Part shown: piece by piece, positions 28,306 to 52,814 of the stretch | Layout of the letters: each line of letters starts with the position of its first letter | Position numbering within the stretch: the first letter of the stretch is position 1 | Source of the DNA: Escherichia coli | Lineage (GTDB): Bacteria; Pseudomonadota; Gammaproteobacteria; Enterobacterales; Enterobacteriaceae | Assembly (NCBI RefSeq): GCF_003019035.1 | Contig: NZ_CP027447.1 | Direction: 5' to 3' (one strand) | Length of the DNA stretch: 64,000 nucleotides | Notes under the pieces: model-generated | The model's database searches: none | What the model was told of the DNA's origin: nothing | What the model saw: only the letters and a program-made list of their open reading frames with translations | Program-made: the position numbers and the translations under genes

Positions 28306-29281
28306 GATCGTCTCCTCCGTCGTGATGGTCGTTTTTGGTGTTGCGACGAACCAGCACGGTTAAGCCCGCCAGCACAGCCAGTGGTAGCATCATGCCTTTA
28401 TACAGGGTGTGTTGAATATTTTCGGAACGCGCACCGGTAGAAAGATCGTCCAGTTTCGGCAGGTCGAGATTTTCATAAGGCACACCCGTCAGTACCAGAA
28501 CCTGAGTACCGCCGCCCTCTTTCTCGCCGTACAGATGCGGATAATATTTCGGCACCGTATGCAGGTAAGTGTCGCCAGATTTCAGCGTCTGACGCGGATA
28601 GTGGTATTCGCTGCCAGGCTTCAGCGCCAGACGTTTTTTCGCCTCCGCCATCAGCTCTTCACGCGTACCGAAAATCACCGCGCCCGCCGGGCACACTTCT
28701 ACGCAGCCAGGCAGACCGCCTTTATCGAGACGTTCCACACCTTTCTGGTTGCACAGCTCGCACTTATGCAGCGCACCAAACGGGTTGTTGTAGTCGTACT
28801 TCGGCACATTGTATGGGCAGGCGACCATGCAGTAACGGCAGCCGGTGCACACATCTTTGTCGTAATGGACAATGCCGGTTTTCGGATCTTTTTTCAGTGC
28901 AGAGACCGGGCACACAGAGACACAGTTCGGATCGACGCAGTGCATACACTGTTTCTTAATGTACGCGTAGCCGTTCTCTTCCTGGTCTTTGTTGACACCC
29001 GTGCCGCTGGTCCACACCTGAATGATGTTATTGGTATACGGCGACAGTTTGTCGTTGTTCGACCAGGTCTGTTCCCCTTGCGGGTTACGTTCAGGGAAGT
29101 TGATATCCTGACACTTGGTGACGCAAGCCTGGCAGCCTACGCACAAGGTCGAGTCGTACAACATCCCCAGCGATCCCGGAATTGGCGGGCGGTTTTCAGC
29201 AGCCGCATGACTGACAGACGGCAACGCGCCCGTCAGCAATGCCCCGCAGGAGGCTGCTTTAATAAAATTACGTCTGTTCAC
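28295..29281 (-). CDS. hybA: hydrogenase-2 ferredoxin-type Fe-S subunit
   Basis: 328-aa ORF with twin-arginine signal ([15 protein letters not shown]) and multiple CxxCxxCxxxCP clusters. Confidence 0.9.
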
Positions 29282-45056: not shown

Positions 45057-45307
45057 TTTGCTTCCAGAAATGATAAAAAAATAATCAAAGGCCGGGGATT
45101 ATACGCTGTATCACGCGCGGAAATGAAGTGATGTTGATGAACGGTGGCGAAATACCCTGGTGAGGTTTTTCACTGCCCGACTTGGGCAAGCACATTTAAG
45201 GCTGGCGGTATCGTGGCAACTGCCGCTACTATTTATGCCGATCAGCAACGTTCAAATCATATTGCACGACGATCGGCTATCCGAGGACACCCACAGTAAG
45301 GCAAGGT

Positions 45308-46057
45308 ATGGAACAGGTTATTACAAAGCGCCGCTATTACGATATTGGTCTACAGATTGAAGAGCTGCTGTATTCAGGCGTATTTAAGGCCGGAGAACGC
45401 TTACCTTCAGAACGTGAACTGAGCGAGCGGTTTAATACCAGCCGAACTACCATTCGTGAAGCCATCATTATGCTGGAACTGAAAGGCGTATTGAATGTGA
45501 AGCAAGGGTCAGGGATTTTCTTTGTCGACTCCACCGATAAGCTCAACCAGAAATCATTAATGCCCTATTCAGAAATTGGCCCGTTTGAACTGTTGCAGGC
45601 GCGTCAGGTGATTGAGAGCAATATTACTGGTTTTGCAGCCAGCCAGATTAGCTTTAACGAGTTACAAGAGTTAAAGAAAATCATTAGCTTGCAGGAAAAC
45701 GCTATCGCTGCGGAAAGTGATAAATTTGAAGACCTGGATCACCGATTTCATAGCATTATTGCCGAAGCGACGCAAAATCGGGTACTCATCAAACAAGCCG
45801 CTGAATTATGGCGGGCAGTGCGCACAGAAAACCCCCGCTGGAAGAAACTTAACTACAAGTACCTGCATGAAAAGCATTTGCGTCTGCAATGGCTGGAAGA
45901 TCACCGGGCTATTTTCCTGGCTCTGCAACAGAAAGATTCAGAGCTCGCCAGGGAAGCGTCCTGGAGACATCTGGAAAACAGCAAAAATGAACTGATCAAA
46001 ATCTTCAAACAAGACGCTTCCATCAGCGATTTTGATGACTTTTTCTTCGCTCGTTAA
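45308..46057 (+). CDS. GntR/FadR-family transcriptional regulator
   Basis: 249-aa ORF; N-terminal winged HTH (ERLPSERELSERFNTSRTTIREA), FCD-type C-terminal domain. Confidence 0.8.
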   Translation: MEQVITKRRYYDIGLQIEELLYSGVFKAGERLPSERELSERFNTSRTTIREAIIMLELKGVLNVKQGSGIFFVDSTDKLNQKSLMPYSEIGPFELLQARQVIESNITGFAASQISFNELQELKKIISLQENAIAAESDKFEDLDHRFHSIIAEATQNRVLIKQAAELWRAVRTENPRWKKLNYKYLHEKHLRLQWLEDHRAIFLALQQKDSELAREASWRHLENSKNELIKIFKQDASISDFDDFFFAR

Positions 46058-46379
46058 CCTTCATTAGTCCAGAGCTGGCGTGAAAAATGACGCTGGCTCT
46101 GCGTTGCACCCTCCACTGGTATACGCTCTCTTCTCAATTGGTCTAATAAATCGATTATCATCAGATATCTTAGATTAGCGGCAATTATCCCAAAAACTGA
46201 CTTCTAAAAAACTTTCCTTTCATTTTATTCATATAACTCATTGATACAGATATAAATAACGCCTTGTTGTTCTGTTTCGTACTTTTACCTTTCTCTGCAA
46301 GCGTGATGCATCTCTCTGTTTTTGGTCTAGTGAATTATGTAAATTGGTATACACACAAGCCACCAGGAGTAAGAGCATA

Positions 46380-47852
46380 ATGTCAGGGAACGAAAGTATC
46401 GATGCCGCCCACTATGATCAGGTAACCACCTGGCCTCGGGGCGGGTTACAGGCAGATATTGTCCATATTGGTTTTGGCGCTTTTCATCGCGGACACCAGG
46501 CTGTCTACACGGATCTCACTAATCAACTTTCGGACACCCGCTGGGGGATCTTTGAGATCAACCTGTTTGGTGATGCTCAACTGATCGAAAACTTAAATGC
46601 GCAAAATGGGCTGTTTTCGGTTGTGGAAACATCTGCATCGCAATCTACCTCACGCCTTGTGCGTTCGGTGGCTGGCGGTATTCATACCCCCAGAGATGGC
46701 ATTGCCGCAGCAATCCATAAACTGGCTGAACCTCAGGTAAAAATCGTTTCATTAACCATCACCGAGAAAGGTTATTGCCTCGATCCGCAAACACGTTCAC
46801 TTGATCTCACCAATGGATTAATCCAACACGATCTACAAAACCCGGATGCGCCTCTGTCAGCTATTGGCGTGATCGTCTGTGCTTTGCAACAACGTAAAGC
46901 GACAGGACTCGCCGCTTTTAGTGTGCTCTCCTGTGACAACTTGCCAGACAATGGGCATCTGACGCGCAATGCCGTTCTCGGTTTTGCCCGACAACTGGAC
47001 CAGCCCCTGGCTCAGTGGATCGAAGAAAATGTCTCATTTCCAGGCACGATGGTAGATCGCATTGTTCCGGCAATGACTGAATCGCAATTCGCCTTACTGG
47101 AAACGAAAACCGGTTATGCCGATCCCTGCGGGATCGTCTGCGAATCATTTCGTCAGTGGGTGATCGAAGATAATTTTGTGCGCGGACGACCACAATGGGA
47201 TAAAGCCGGCGCGATGTTTGTCAGCAATGTTCAGCCTTATGAAGAGATGAAGTTACGCATGTTAAATGGTAGCCATTCATTTCTGGCTTATAACGGCTCG
47301 CTGGCAGGCTATGAGTTTATCTGGCAATGCATGGAAGACGCTAATTTTCGTTCCATTACCCACCAACTGATGATTAATGAACAAGCCCGAACACTTAATC
47401 CAGACTTAAATATCAACATCCAGGAATACGCCGACCTGTTAATTGAACGCTTTAGCAACCGTAACGTTGCACACCGTACCGGGCAAATAGCCATGGACGG
47501 TTCACAAAAGCTTCCCCAGCGTGCACTGACGCCCTGGCTGAAATTACATCAGCAAAAGCAAAACAATGCTGTTCTGTCACTGCTCGTTGCTGGTTGGTTG
47601 CATTATGTCATTGATGCTGTTGAGAAAAGCCAGTCTGTCGCTGATCCAATGAATGACCAATTTCAGGCGCTAATAAAGGAACAACAAGACGCATGGCAAC
47701 AGGCGCTCGCATTACTGCACCTTAGCGCCATATTTGGTGATTTAAGCAACCATCAGCCATTTATAAATGAAATAAAAATCGCCTTTGCGAATATAAAAAA
47801 CAAAGGCATCAAGGCCACCATCAGCCAATTATTATCGGATGAGCAGAAATGA
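46380..47852 (+). CDS. mannitol-dehydrogenase-family oxidoreductase (fructuronate/mannonate-reductase-like)
   Basis: Start moved from TTG at 46344 to ATG at 46380 preceded by aggag RBS (MSGNESIDAAHY); long-chain mannitol DH family features. Confidence 0.75.
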   Translation: MSGNESIDAAHYDQVTTWPRGGLQADIVHIGFGAFHRGHQAVYTDLTNQLSDTRWGIFEINLFGDAQLIENLNAQNGLFSVVETSASQSTSRLVRSVAGGIHTPRDGIAAAIHKLAEPQVKIVSLTITEKGYCLDPQTRSLDLTNGLIQHDLQNPDAPLSAIGVIVCALQQRKATGLAAFSVLSCDNLPDNGHLTRNAVLGFARQLDQPLAQWIEENVSFPGTMVDRIVPAMTESQFALLETKTGYADPCGIVCESFRQWVIEDNFVRGRPQWDKAGAMFVSNVQPYEEMKLRMLNGSHSFLAYNGSLAGYEFIWQCMEDANFRSITHQLMINEQARTLNPDLNINIQEYADLLIERFSNRNVAHRTGQIAMDGSQKLPQRALTPWLKLHQQKQNNAVLSLLVAGWLHYVIDAVEKSQSVADPMNDQFQALIKEQQDAWQQALALLHLSAIFGDLSNHQPFINEIKIAFANIKNKGIKATISQLLSDEQK

Positions 47853-48865
47853 AAACATTAATTTGTCAGCAGCCTGGCGTTATGGAATATGTGGAAAAGG
47901 ATATTCCCACACCAGCAGATAATGAAGTGCTGTTAAAAATCAAAGCTGTGGGTATTTGTGGTACTGATATTCACGCTTTTGCCGGCAGACAGCCTTTTTT
48001 TAGCTACCCACGTGTATTAGGTCATGAAATATGCGCCGAAGCGGTTTCGCGAGGCAGCCAGTGCCAAACAGCACAATCAGGCCAGCGCTATTCCGTCATC
48101 CCATGCATTCCGTGTGGCGAGTGCGCAGCCTGTCGGGAAGAGAAAACGAACTGCTGCGAACGTGTTTCGCTGTATGGCGTGCATCAGGATGGGGGTTTTA
48201 GTGAGTACCTTGCGGTACGTGAAGACAACCTTGTGCCTCTCCCTGACGAGGTCAGCGACAGTGCCGGAGCATTGGTTGAATGTTTCGCCATTGGTGCACA
48301 TGCCGTTCGTCGGGCAGAGATCAAGGCTGAACAAAACGTACTGGTGGTTGGCGCTGGGCCAATCGGTCTGGCTACCGCGGCCATCGCCAGGGCTAAAGGG
48401 GCGCATGTTGTTGTTGCTGATATTGATTGTCAACGTCGCCAGCACGTTGTGGATCATCTGGCAATTAATGTCTTCGACCCAACACAGGAAGGTTTTATTG
48501 CCGCGCTTAGTGAAGTATTTGGCGGCGAACTGGCTTGCGTAGTCCTGGATGCGACGGGAAATAAAGCTTCAATGAGTCATGATGTAAATCTTATTCGTCA
48601 TGGCGGCAAAATTGTTTTCATCGGTTTGTACATTGGTGAACTTGTTATTGACGATCCGACCTTCCATAAAAAAGAGACAACGTTACTCAGCAGCCGCAAT
48701 GCCACACGGGAAGATTTTGCGTTGGTGATTGAACTGATGCGCAGCAATAAAATTCACGAAAATTTAATGAAAAACCAGGCGTTCAATTTCTTTAGTGTTG
48801 GCGAAGATTACCAGCGTAACGTTGTAGAAAATAAAAATATGGTCAAGGGTGTGATCACTTTTTAA
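47849..48865 (+). CDS. Zn-dependent medium-chain alcohol/polyol dehydrogenase
   Basis: 338-aa ORF; catalytic GHE motif, structural-zinc Cys cluster CGECAACREEKTNCC, Rossmann GAGPIG; ATGA overlap with upstream gene. Confidence 0.8.
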   Translation: MKTLICQQPGVMEYVEKDIPTPADNEVLLKIKAVGICGTDIHAFAGRQPFFSYPRVLGHEICAEAVSRGSQCQTAQSGQRYSVIPCIPCGECAACREEKTNCCERVSLYGVHQDGGFSEYLAVREDNLVPLPDEVSDSAGALVECFAIGAHAVRRAEIKAEQNVLVVGAGPIGLATAAIARAKGAHVVVADIDCQRRQHVVDHLAINVFDPTQEGFIAALSEVFGGELACVVLDATGNKASMSHDVNLIRHGGKIVFIGLYIGELVIDDPTFHKKETTLLSSRNATREDFALVIELMRSNKIHENLMKNQAFNFFSVGEDYQRNVVENKNMVKGVITF

Positions 48866-48875
48866 GGGAACAAAT

Positions 48876-49886
48876 ATGACAACTGTTTATGTCAGTGAAG
48901 AAAATTTAAAATCACTGGTGCACCACAAATTACATACCGCCGGGCTGGATACCGACACCACACAACAGGTGACAGATGTTTTAGTACATGCCGATATTAC
49001 AGGTGTGCATTCACATGGTGTTATGCGTGTCGAACATTATTGCACCCGCCTTGCTGCCGGAGGGTTAAATAAAGCCCCGCAGTTTAGCATTGAGCAAATT
49101 TCACCGTCAGTGGCCATTCTCGACTCTGACGACGGAATGGGGCATTCCGCATTAATTAGCGCCACTGAGCACGCTATTAAACTGGCCCAGCAAGAGGGCC
49201 TCGGTTTTGTTAGCGTTAAAAACACGTCTCACTGTGGTGCGTTATCTTATTTTGCAGAGATGATCACCAACAAAGGGTTGGTTGCTATCGTAATGACGCA
49301 AACCGATACCTGTGTGGCTCCCCATGGCGGCGCCGAGCGCTTTTTGGGAACTAACCCCATCGCCTTTGGTTTCCCGGTGGAAAACAGCCATCCGATGATT
49401 GTTGATATGGCGACCAGTGCCACGGCTTTCGGCAAAATACTTCATGCAAAGGAAACCGGAAAACATATTGGTGAAGGGCTGGCGATAGATAAAAACGGTT
49501 ATGGCACCACTGATCCGTATAAGATTGAAAACCTGCTACCTTTCGGCCAACACAAAGGTTCAGGCATTGCACTGGCTATTGATGCACTGACTGGCGTGCT
49601 GATGAATGCGAATTTTGGCAACCATATTGTTCGCATGTATGGTGATTATGACAAGATGCGTAAGCTGGCAAGTTTGGTTATTGCCATCGATCCGAAAAAG
49701 CTCGGCAATCCTGTTTTTGCAAAAACCATGGCGCAAATGGTCACGGAGTTGCATGCCGTTAAACCGGCTCCCGGTATCGAAAAAGTGTTAGCGCCGAACG
49801 ATCCGCAAATGCACTACAAAGAAAAATGCCAACAGGAAGGTATTCCGGTTCCGGCAGGAATATTCCATTATCTGGCAGAGAATTAA
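48876..49886 (+). CDS. Ldh2-family (malate/L-lactate dehydrogenase 2-type) oxidoreductase
   Basis: 336-aa ORF with Ldh2-family features (HSHGVMRVEHY, GTNPIAFG). Confidence 0.75.
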   Translation: MTTVYVSEENLKSLVHHKLHTAGLDTDTTQQVTDVLVHADITGVHSHGVMRVEHYCTRLAAGGLNKAPQFSIEQISPSVAILDSDDGMGHSALISATEHAIKLAQQEGLGFVSVKNTSHCGALSYFAEMITNKGLVAIVMTQTDTCVAPHGGAERFLGTNPIAFGFPVENSHPMIVDMATSATAFGKILHAKETGKHIGEGLAIDKNGYGTTDPYKIENLLPFGQHKGSGIALAIDALTGVLMNANFGNHIVRMYGDYDKMRKLASLVIAIDPKKLGNPVFAKTMAQMVTELHAVKPAPGIEKVLAPNDPQMHYKEKCQQEGIPVPAGIFHYLAEN

Positions 49887-49958
49887 TCACTACTTTTTAT
49901 TATAACGATAGAAAAGCGCTGTATTTATCGTTTCTGTTATATTAACCAGGAGCAAGAT

Positions 49959-50942
49959 ATGAAAGCACTTCGTCCTCTGACGGCATCGCTTATGCTGTTA
50001 ACCAGTTGTTTTTTAGTTTCCAATACCACACTGGCAAAAACAACATTAAAACTCAGTCATAATCAGGATAAAAGCCATGCTGTCCATAAAGCATTAAGCT
50101 ATTTAGCGGATAAAACCAAAGAGTATTCTAATGGTGAATTAGTTATTCGCATTTACCCAAATGCGACATTAGGTAATGAGCGTGAATCACTGGAATTAAT
50201 GAACTCCGGTGCATTACAGATGGTTAAGGTTAATGCTGCATCACTAGAATCATTTGCCCCGGATTACAGCCTTTTCAGTCTGCCGTTCTTATTTCGCGAC
50301 CGTGATCACTATTATCGTGTTCTGCAAAGTGATTTAGGTAAAAAAATACTTAAGTCATCAGAAAGCAAAGGTTTTGTTGGTATTACGTACTATGACGGCG
50401 GTGCGAGAAGTTTTTATTCCAATAAACCGATTACAAAACCTGAAGATTTAGCGGGAATGAAAATCAGGGTTCAACAAAGCCCCAGCGCCATTGCAATGAT
50501 GAAAGCACTCGGTGGTGTCGCTACCCCGATGGCGCAAGGCGAACTCTACACCGCACTTCAGCAAGGTGTGGTTGATGGCGGAGAGAACAATACCGTTGTC
50601 TATTCCGATATGCGTCACGCCGAAGTCGCAAAAGTCTATTCACGTGATGAACACACCATGGTACCTGATGTGTTAATTATCAGCACCGACGTGTTGAATA
50701 AACTTGGTGATAAAGAGCGCACGGCATTATTAAAAGCAGCCGATGAGTCAATGATGCAGATGAAGGACGTCATCTGGCCTGCGGCTGAAAAAGAAGCCTA
50801 CGACAAAATGAAAGGGATGAACGCAACAGTTGTTGATGTTGATAAATCCGCTTTCAAAGAACGCGTCAAACCGTTATACGATGAATTCAAGGCGAAAGAT
50901 GCACAATCCGCCAAAAACCTTGAGCAAGTAGAAAGTATGTAA
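49959..50942 (+). CDS. TRAP transporter substrate-binding protein (DctP family)
   Basis: 327-aa ORF with signal peptide and DctP-type sequence. Confidence 0.8.
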   Translation: MKALRPLTASLMLLTSCFLVSNTTLAKTTLKLSHNQDKSHAVHKALSYLADKTKEYSNGELVIRIYPNATLGNERESLELMNSGALQMVKVNAASLESFAPDYSLFSLPFLFRDRDHYYRVLQSDLGKKILKSSESKGFVGITYYDGGARSFYSNKPITKPEDLAGMKIRVQQSPSAIAMMKALGGVATPMAQGELYTALQQGVVDGGENNTVVYSDMRHAEVAKVYSRDEHTMVPDVLIISTDVLNKLGDKERTALLKAADESMMQMKDVIWPAAEKEAYDKMKGMNATVVDVDKSAFKERVKPLYDEFKAKDAQSAKNLEQVESM

Positions 50943-50983
50943 CCCTAATGGGCAGGTAATTCCTGCCTTTTCATGGAAGACTT

Positions 50984-51466
50984 ATGCGAACACTCACTCA
51001 TATTCTTAATAAGATCCTTGCCGGATGTTGCCGCATTATTCTCGCCATTATGGTGTTCTGCGTAACCTGGCAAGTTATTGCACGTTTTATTTTTAACGCT
51101 CCCAGCACTGTGCTTGATGAGTTCACCCAGATTTTATTTATGTGGATGATTTTACTTGGTGGTGTATATACTGCGGGGTTAAAAAAACATCTGGCCATTG
51201 ATTTGTTGGCTCAAAAACTTCCGGCTGCATCTGTTCTGACGCTTGACTGTTTTATCCAAATTATTATTACGGTCTTTGCGGTTATTTTCATGATCTATGG
51301 CGGGAATATTGTTGTTGAAAAAGCACAACATGTTGGACAAATCTCTCCTGTATTAAAATGGCCGATGGATAAGGTTTATTGGGTTATGCCTGCCAGTGGG
51401 CTTATTCTGGTCTGGTATTCAGTGATGAATATCATCGACAACTATCGCAAATGGAATTCTCATTAA
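50984..51466 (+). CDS. TRAP transporter small permease (DctQ family)
   Basis: 160-aa ORF with four predicted TM helices. Confidence 0.75.
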   Translation: MRTLTHILNKILAGCCRIILAIMVFCVTWQVIARFIFNAPSTVLDEFTQILFMWMILLGGVYTAGLKKHLAIDLLAQKLPAASVLTLDCFIQIIITVFAVIFMIYGGNIVVEKAQHVGQISPVLKWPMDKVYWVMPASGLILVWYSVMNIIDNYRKWNSH

Positions 51467-51476
51467 CGAGGGAAGT

Positions 51477-52781
51477 ATGGACATTGAATATATCTACCCC
51501 GTCTTAATTTTATTTGGCAGTTTTGCCGTCATGCTGGCAATCGGTGTGCCAATTACTTTTGCGATTGGTCTTTCTTCGCTGTTATCTATTATTACTGCCT
51601 TACCACCCGATGCCGCCATTTCTGTGATTTCGCAAAAGATGACTGTGGGGCTGGATGGCTTTACGCTATTAGCCATTCCCTTCTTCGTGTTAGCCGGAAA
51701 CATTATGAATACCGGTGGTATAGCCAGACGACTGGTTAACCTGGCGCAAGCATTAGTTGGGCGTCTTCCTGGCTCACTGGCTCATTGTAATATCCTCGCG
51801 AATACACTGTTTGGTGCGATTTCAGGTTCAGCCGTTGCGTCAGCCGCAGCGGTAGGTGGGATTATGTCACCACTGCAAGAAAAAGAGGGCTATGATCCGG
51901 CGTTCTCTGCGGCGGTTAATATTGCCTCTGCCCCCATTGGCCTGATGATCCCACCGAGCAATGTGTTGATTGTTTATTCCCTCGCCAGTGGCGGGACTTC
52001 TGTCGCTGCGTTGTTCTTAGCTGGATATCTGCCGGGCATCCTCACCGCTGTTGCCTTAATGTTTGTAGCTGCACTTTATGCCCGACGTCACCATTACCCA
52101 GTGGCCGAACGCATCAATTACCGTCAGTTTTTACAGGTATTCCGCGAATCAATTCCTAGCCTGATGCTTATTTTTATCATTATTGGCGGTATTATCGCAG
52201 GGGTATTTACGCCCACAGAAGCATCAGCAATAGCGGTAATTTATAGTTTAGCCCTGGCGATGATTTACCGGGAAATCACCATCAAGAAACTCAATGACAT
52301 CCTGTTAGACTCCGTAGTAACCAGTTCAATTGTTCTGTTGCTGGTAGGCTGCTCGATGGGGATGTCATGGGCCATGACGAATGCTGATGTTCCTGAGTTG
52401 ATCAACGAACTGATTACCCGCGTTTCGGATAACAAATGGGTCATTCTATTTATTATTAATATCATTCTGTTGATCGTCGGTACCTTTATGGATATCACGC
52501 CGGCGATCCTGATATTTACACCTATTTTCCTGCCGATCGCCCAGCATCTGGGGATTGATCCGATTCACTTCGGCATCATTATGGTTTTCAACTTAACCAT
52601 TGGCCTTTGCACACCACCTGTCGGCACCATTCTGTTTGTGGGGTGCAGCATTGGTAAGGTCAGTATCGACAGGGCAATAAAACCATTACTGCCGATGTTT
52701 CTGGCATTGTTTGTAGTAATGGCAATTATTTGTTATTTCCCGCAGCTTAGTCTGATGCTGCCAGGATTATTTTCGACCTGA
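51477..52781 (+). CDS. TRAP transporter large permease (DctM family)
   Basis: 434-aa polytopic ORF. Confidence 0.8.
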   Translation: MDIEYIYPVLILFGSFAVMLAIGVPITFAIGLSSLLSIITALPPDAAISVISQKMTVGLDGFTLLAIPFFVLAGNIMNTGGIARRLVNLAQALVGRLPGSLAHCNILANTLFGAISGSAVASAAAVGGIMSPLQEKEGYDPAFSAAVNIASAPIGLMIPPSNVLIVYSLASGGTSVAALFLAGYLPGILTAVALMFVAALYARRHHYPVAERINYRQFLQVFRESIPSLMLIFIIIGGIIAGVFTPTEASAIAVIYSLALAMIYREITIKKLNDILLDSVVTSSIVLLLVGCSMGMSWAMTNADVPELINELITRVSDNKWVILFIINIILLIVGTFMDITPAILIFTPIFLPIAQHLGIDPIHFGIIMVFNLTIGLCTPPVGTILFVGCSIGKVSIDRAIKPLLPMFLALFVVMAIICYFPQLSLMLPGLFST

Positions 52782-52814
52782 TACACAATGAAGACTGCAT
52801 ACTGAGTAATTTTC

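Follow-up and report, generated by a model that had tools for sequence, protein, structure and literature searches.

Which sites control the operon of an accessory sugar-acid island in Escherichia coli, and which regulator reads them? The stretch of DNA analyzed here (64,000 nucleotides, hereafter the window) carries such an island, headed by a GntR/FadR-subfamily (FCD) regulator gene (45308-46057, + strand; Pfam GntR and FCD) that encodes a UxuR/ExuR paralogue and presumed repressor. A 322-bp non-coding spacer (46058-46379) runs from the regulator stop codon at 46057 to an ATG at 46380. A first-pass annotation had proposed that an 8-mer repeated in this spacer, built on the palindrome GTATAC, is a candidate operator for a GntR-family regulator that recognizes a GT..AC core. 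Here we compare the spacer with its orthologues, weigh the candidate binders, and set the result beside known sugar-acid systems.

According to Pfam and NCBIfam matches, the operon downstream of the spacer encodes, all on the + strand, a mannitol-dehydrogenase-family (UxuB-like) enzyme near fructuronate reductase (46380-47852), a Zn-dependent alcohol dehydrogenase (Zn-ADH) of the LgoD/RspB-like type (47849-48865), an Ldh_2 oxidoreductase (48876-49886), and a TRAP transporter, DctP/Q/M (49959-52781). RefSeq annotates the same island in strain SMS-3-5, where the TRAP small-permease (DctQ) gene (L001 17785-18267) is an annotated pseudogene with an internal stop; the transporter may therefore be inactive in some carriers. 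The island lies between ygiQ and ftsP in 1,204 of 5,426 complete E. coli genomes (~22%), including ExPEC/APEC strains. The window itself matches strain SCU-301 at 100% identity. A single one of the 1,207 places that match the regulator/dehydrogenase junction is plasmid-borne. A 2026 genome paper lists the locus as “GR 21 ygiQ..ftsP” from homology annotation only, with the dehydrogenase 49% identical to UxuB and the Zn-ADH 55% identical to YjjN/LgoD (PMC12928451). Our literature search returned no functional work on either the island or its regulator, although earlier site lists for the hexuronate regulon may include island sites. Judging from the enzyme families, an imported hexonate of the L-gulonate/L-galactonate type would be converted to a keto-uronate by the Zn-ADH, and the UxuB-like enzyme would then reduce the keto-uronate to D-mannonate or D-altronate, which would enter the core uxu/uxa pathway. 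On this pathway, the effector of the regulator is probably such an intermediate.

The ends of the spacer were placed as follows. The first-pass annotation had preferred the ATG at 46380 to a TTG at 46344 as the start of the dehydrogenase gene, and both RefSeq and the orthologues support that choice. The TTG was rejected as a start, being out of frame or meeting stop codons in three orthologues (L005, L006, L007). A ribosome-binding site, AGGAG (46365-46369, + strand), was read from the sequence 10 nt 5' of the ATG. At the other end, just 3' of the regulator stop codon, an inverted repeat forms a 12-bp hairpin without a T-run (46070-46101, + strand; fold −20.7 kcal/mol, z −3.3), a possible terminator, transcript-end, or transcript-stabilizing structure. 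Its G-U pairs become G-C or U-A at 46094 and 46095 in other E. coli alleles, changes that are consistent with a selected structure. A search of Rfam across 45900-46500 returned no match at E ≤ 1; the region is therefore not a known riboswitch or sRNA.

Repeated words in the spacer

The spacer holds two copies of the 8-mer TGGTATAC, at 46117-46124 and 46345-46352. The earlier coordinates were exact for the first copy and one base off for the second (given as 46346-46353), and the 27-nt gap reported between the second copy and the ATG is correct for the true position. In the whole 64-kb window, the word occurs three times against 1.1 expected, an unremarkable count that was equaled or exceeded in 10 of 100 shuffles. 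Two copies within 322 bp have a Poisson probability of ~1e-5, calculated post hoc from the frequency of the word elsewhere in the window. The third copy, at 29032-29039, was rejected as an operator and treated as a chance match: it lies inside a long open reading frame, its flanks are unlike the motif described below, and its matrix score is −2.3.

Further boxes overlooked by the first-pass annotation emerged from a repeat search. The word TTGGTCTA occurs at 46138 and 46322, and AATTGG at 46136 and 46342. Moreover, TGGT starts at 46117, 46139, 46323, and 46345, which gives two pairs with 22 nt between starts within each. Two of the window's eight copies of AATTGGT fall in the spacer (P = 4.5e-4).

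Within E. coli, 25 of the 322 spacer positions vary among five alleles, and substitutions within the box cores fall only at the positions between half-sites. The distal site reads TGGTACAC (change at position 46122) in SMS-3-5, UTI89, isolate 538, and 1532MA, and the proximal site reads TGGTCTAC in UTI89 (position 46349). Because other E. coli alleles change the spacer bases at 46122 or 46349, the identity of the two 8-mers is strain-specific. On these alignments, we regard the exact 8-mer repeat and the GTATAC palindrome as accidents of this strain's alleles. Accordingly, the conservation among orthologues that the first-pass annotation had called for is absent for the literal 8-mer and present for a degenerate motif. 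More generally, a genuine, degenerate motif can underlie a word whose exact repetition is accidental and confined to one strain.

A degenerate motif in orthologous control regions

Orthologous cassettes were collected from another E. coli lineage, E. albertii, Klebsiella spallanzanii, Phytobacter, Budvicia, and Salmonella, together with a second E. coli cassette by gyrB and further cassettes from several Vibrio, Aliagarivorans, Neiella, Psychromonas, and Pseudovibrio loci. Words were counted in 11 divergent orthologous upstream regions, with the window and its two closest relatives left out. The most over-represented words were TTGGT (45 vs. 13.9 expected), ATTGGT (25 vs. 4.1), and AATTGGT (13 vs. 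1.4); ATTGGT was the most enriched 6-mer and was found in all 11 regions. When positions in the orthologues were anchored on TTGGT, two variable bases followed and then ACCAATT, giving the dyad AATTGGT-NN-ACCAATT. The form AATTGGT-NN-AC(CAATT) is shared by loci from E. coli to Vibrio.

A matrix built from the orthologous sites only was then scanned across the ~64,000 positions of the window; its scores within the orthologues are circular, given that those sites trained it. The matches at 46135 and 46341 ranked fourth and fifth of ~64,000, and both are inside the 322-bp spacer. Seven of the window's 25 best matrix matches lie within the 7.5-kb island (45300-52800), mostly in coding sequence (47646, 48630, 49611, 50332, 50408, and 51538), a clustering that may stem from a higher AT content or from weak internal sites. 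The seventh-best match in the window, ATATTGGTCTACAGATTG at 45342-45359, is in the regulator coding sequence and was rejected as an autoregulatory operator: its synonymous positions vary freely in distant orthologues. It covers the codons D-I-G-L-Q with a rare CTA and probably just reflects the encoded protein. Upstream of the regulator gene, the matrix scan found no convincing box.

Four boxes were defined in the spacer, none of them assigned a strand. The main candidate operator is the second proximal box, AAATTGGTATACACACAA (46341-46358), which holds the second TGGTATAC and has a matrix score of 11.66 (rank 5). Its center is ~30 nt 5' of the ATG, and it has ACAC where ACCA is expected. In an alignment of seven taxa, its AATTGGT..AC is invariant and variation is confined to the two spacer bases, which read AT, CT, CC, CT, TA, AA, and AA (AC also occurs among orthologues). 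The first proximal box, TTTTTGGTCTAGTGAATT (46319-46336), scores 5.3 (rank 80) and has kept its left half-site, with a right half that is not ACCA-like; TTTTGGT.T...TG is invariant in the seven taxa, and there are no substitutions among the five E. coli alleles. The proximal region as a whole is thus fixed at TTTTGGT, at AATTGGT, and at the AC two bases on. The strong distal candidate site is the second distal box, CAATTGGTCTAATAAATC (46135-46152; score 12.15, rank 4), in which AATTGGTCTAAT is invariant in the window, SMS-3-5, L005, and L006 amid diverged flanks. It lies 22 nt from the first distal box, CCACTGGTATACGCTCTC (46113-46130), which holds the first TGGTATAC and is a weak, core-only candidate site. 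The distal pair follows directly on the hairpin described above.

These boxes share two properties with UxuR-type operators: they lie between the regulator stop codon and the operon ATG, and in the orthologous control regions the informative positions are fixed and the spacer is free. From this comparison, we take the recognized unit to be TTGGT plus AC two bases later within AT-rich flanks, the central two bases being a free spacer. The proposal of a GntR-family operator with a GT..AC core therefore holds in kind on comparative evidence. However, the unit is AATTGGT plus AC rather than the 8-mer or GTATAC, and the two sites proposed become four boxes in two pairs, in which the distal TGGTATAC is the weakest and 46135-46152 is the strong distal site.

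Position and spacing recur across the cassettes. The triad of mannitol-family dehydrogenase, Zn-ADH, and Ldh_2 genes is linked to the regulator in the window and 13 further loci, 14 in all, from several orders, and in nearly all of these a box is centered 21-37 nt 5' of the dehydrogenase start codon. Box pairs 21-22 nt apart were counted nine times against 1.5 expected by random placement, a number not reached in any of 5,000 permutations; because the enteric loci have a common ancestry, these conserved positions, spacings, and pairs are not independent events. A secondary peak of spacing was seen at 32-33 nt. The 21-22 nt pairing points to two dimers that would bind on the same face of the DNA.

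A competing reading, possible but on balance doubtful, is that the distal TGGTATAC at 46117-46124 is a relic or chance match, with the operator consisting of the proximal pair, perhaps together with 46135-46152. The first distal box scores only −0.5 (rank 710 of ~64,000 window positions, which is background), has neither AT-rich flanks nor an ACCA half, and loses its 8-mer identity with the proximal copy in four other E. coli alleles. In related cassettes, the full palindromes TGGTATACCAAT and TGGTACACCAAT occupy the distal-equivalent position beside a divergent enolase-superfamily gene, and that gene has been lost from the window's island. Still, the TGGT-NN-AC of this box stands exactly 22 nt from the strong distal box and is kept in the E. 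coli alleles, E. albertii, and Phytobacter (AATTGGTACAC) despite spacer changes (46122 T>C), and such 21-22 nt pairing recurs. The distal boxes have been kept in Klebsiella, Phytobacter, E. albertii, and E. coli although the sequence around them has diverged, a pattern that favors a lasting auxiliary function.

The paralogous cassettes themselves sit elsewhere, by gyrB in E. coli (L003/L004 6001-12750) and by speA in Salmonella (L002 6001-12800), and their regulators are 78-80% identical to that of the island. Both carry the divergent enolase-superfamily (ManD-like) gene, and the gyrB cassette has an MFS transporter instead of TRAP. In the Salmonella cassette, the enolase-superfamily gene is a frameshifted, internally deleted pseudogene.

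Candidate repressor, promoter, and effector

The island regulator falls well below the NCBIfam equivalog cut-offs for both relatives (UxuR, NF007588: 192 bits vs. 442; ExuR, NF008571: 185 vs. 396), on models where genuine UxuR and ExuR proteins score 517-564. Its identity to UxuR and to ExuR is 40% in each case, and it is a paralogue outside both equivalogs. Two such paralogues occur within one genome in the marine gammaproteobacteria Vibrio ulleungensis (L010 and L017, ~23 kb apart) and Aliagarivorans taiwanensis (L014 and L016), which suggests that the regulator family was duplicated along with different sugar-acid modules. Residues D144, H148, H199, and H221 are invariant in 20 regulator orthologues and align with the Zn/effector ligands D148, H152, H201, and H223 of UxuR, so that the protein has the Asp and three His ligands of FCD metal-dependent effector-binding regulators. 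Mutagenesis of the four UxuR residues showed that they are needed for de-repression by D-fructuronate (PMC8092373).

The boxes, their conservation, spacing, and UxuR-type identity, and the family of the regulator were computed; from these we infer the binder, repression, the position of the promoter, and the effector. On this basis, the four UxuR-type boxes in two 22-nt pairs are likely repressor operators at a promoter that depends on CRP, with a sugar-acid effector lifting the repression, and the likeliest binder is the island's own regulator. A dimeric FadR-subfamily repressor, most likely this UxuR/ExuR paralogue, would bind the proximal pair, which overlaps the predicted −10/+1 region of the promoter, and the bound repressor would block RNA polymerase. 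The repressor would then be released when a sugar acid occupies the conserved Zn site in its FCD domain; candidates for this effector are the transported hexonate and pathway intermediates such as D-fructuronate. The distal pair is probably an auxiliary operator engaged in cooperative or looping contacts, and would descend from the promoter of the divergent enolase-superfamily (ManD-like) gene since lost. Distal-to-proximal distances range from 183 to 206 bp, with no clean helical register for DNA looping.

The promoter model rests on the orthologues because a sigma-70 promoter and intrinsic-terminator consensus scan of 45900-46500 gave no matches and the CRP-like site in the window, CGTGA-TGCATC-TCTCT (46302-46317, no strand assigned), matches TGTGA-N6-TCACA at only 7 of 10 positions. 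Sites of this 7/10 class number 176 in the 64-kb window, and only two CRP-like sites in the whole window reach at least 9/10. In the same alignment columns, Klebsiella, Phytobacter, Budvicia, Salmonella, Vibrio, and Aliagarivorans have 8-9 of 10 CRP matches, and the distance from the center of the CRP-like site to the center of the proximal box is 40-41 nt in five enteric loci. The CRP-like site lies immediately 5' of the proximal pair, and these orthologous copies suggest that the promoter is CRP-dependent and of class II. If the CRP-like site acts at −41.5, the start of transcription is predicted near 46351, which would place the proximal box over −10 to ~+8. An operator over −10 to ~+8 is in the classic position for steric repression.

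The identity of the binder is less straightforward than its position. Cross-recognition by UxuR is possible because the island motif is indistinguishable from the UxuR motif, and the genomic linkage across the 14 loci favors the island's own regulator. An intermediate arrangement, in which the island regulator and core UxuR/ExuR cross-bind each other's sites or form mixed dimers, may occur because the operators are indistinguishable and recognition-helix chemistry is common to the regulators. We consider this unlikely, though not negligibly so; it would amount to a rewired hexuronate regulon in about one-fifth of E. coli strains, ExPEC lineages such as UTI89 among them. If true, the acquired regulator would modulate uxuAB/uxuR, and the core repressor would gate the acquired operon.

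It is more improbable that the boxes are read mainly by core UxuR, perhaps with ExuR or as heterodimers, which would make the island operon just one more member of the UxuR regulon. Several similarities speak for this reading. Twelve consecutive nucleotides of the 18 in the proximal box are common to the E. coli uxuR operator, and the best matches of the island matrix in other genera are UxuR operators, namely, the gntP/uxuA and uxuR promoter sites of Citrobacter and Salmonella arizonae (scores 19-22). The recognition helices are also alike (TSRTTIRE in the island regulator, VTRTVVRE in UxuR, and VSRTVVRE in ExuR), and in K-12 the lgoR/lgoD genes are listed in the UxuR regulon despite having their own GntR regulator (PMC5934670). 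However, the boxes accompany the island regulator in 14 loci from several orders, including loci with differing gene order, and the right halves of the window boxes are poor UxuR sites. The wing residues also differ (VKQGSG vs. VRRGAG), and genomic SELEX recovered a single UxuR target in K-12, suggesting narrow specificity in vitro (PMC5934670). We therefore retain the island's own paralogue as the likeliest binder.

That the AATTGGT and TTTTGGT blocks are instead core promoter elements (−10, spacer, UP-like) and not repressor sites is very improbable: the invariant AAT would sit at the −10 hexamer (TAAATT or GTAAAT) if the CRP-like site is at −41.5, and part of the AAT-TGGT conservation could come from a −10 element rather than an operator, but the half-site recurs two to six times per control region on both strands, in ACCAA-partnered dyads and far from any single promoter, the blocks match a known operator family, and a repeat 200 bp upstream by the terminator hairpin would be unexpected.

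Repressor operators read most likely by the island's own regulator thus remain our preferred reading, and they provide a concrete regulatory model for an uncharacterized sugar-acid island, with operator positions, a likely CRP dependence, and a likely class of inducer. The model also flags possible cross-talk between the island and the core UxuR/ExuR hexuronate regulon.

Relation to known sugar-acid switches

The closest known counterpart is the operator of UxuR at the uxuR/uxuAB promoters of E. coli. Sites of the FadR subfamily consist of TKGT/ACMA boxes that are 2 nt apart for UxuR and 3 nt apart for ExuR (PMC4494728), and the sequence published for UxuR, from the E. coli uxuR promoter, is AAATTGGTATACCAATTT (PMC8092373). 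The first 12 of the 18 nt of the proximal box AAATTGGTATACACACAA are identical to this operator. The two share the left half and center AAATTGGTATAC, the TKGT-N2-AC spacing, and the AT-rich flank, and the dyad learned from the orthologues, AAATTGGTTAACCAATTT, has the same architecture. The setting is shared as well, a sugar-acid operon promoter beside a regulator gene of the same subfamily. By contrast, the right halves in the window are degenerate (ACACACAA, AATAAATC, AGTGAATT, and ACGCTCTC), the window boxes form two 22-nt tandem pairs, and the neighboring regulator is a 40%-identical paralogue rather than UxuR itself.

The degree of imperfection can be stated more exactly. A strict TKGT-N2/3-ACMA search of 46058-46379 found no site. 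Against TKGT-N2-ACMA, the proximal TGGT-AT-ACAC matches at 9 of 10 positions and the distal TGGT-AT-ACGC at 8 of 10. Against AAAT...ATTT flanks, 46341 has a perfect left flank (AAAT) and 46135 a near-perfect one (CAAT), and the right flanks are poor. Orthologous proximal boxes match TKGT-N2-ACMA fully (TGGTTAACCA, TGGTAAACAA, and TGGTACACAA).

ExuR operators (uxaC/exuT and exuR, of the AAGTTGTATGACAACTT type) share with the island the regulator subfamily, the TKGT/ACMA logic, and a hexuronate/hexonate physiology, but they have a 3-nt spacer and AAGT/ACTT flanks. An ExuR-type reading of the island boxes was rejected on their 2-nt spacer and AATT flanks. With the island matrix, the 3-nt-spaced ExuR sites score lower, the best uxaC/exuT site reaching 10.6.

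In gene content, the island resembles the K-12 L-galactonate module lgoR-lgoT/lgoD (yjjM-yjjL/yjjN), in which a local GntR/FCD regulator likewise accompanies a Zn-dependent hexonate dehydrogenase that feeds the uxu/uxa pathway. The lgo module differs in having another regulator and an MFS transporter where the island has TRAP, and the island adds UxuB-like and Ldh_2 enzymes. In promoter layout, the island resembles class II CRP-dependent, repressor-controlled sugar-acid promoters in its CRP-like site ~40 nt 5' of the candidate operator, and differs in that this site matches at 7 of 10 positions in the window and the position of the island promoter is a predicted one. Overall, the island boxes appear to be an ordinary case: an unstudied example of the well-known UxuR-type switch, with no new regulatory principle.
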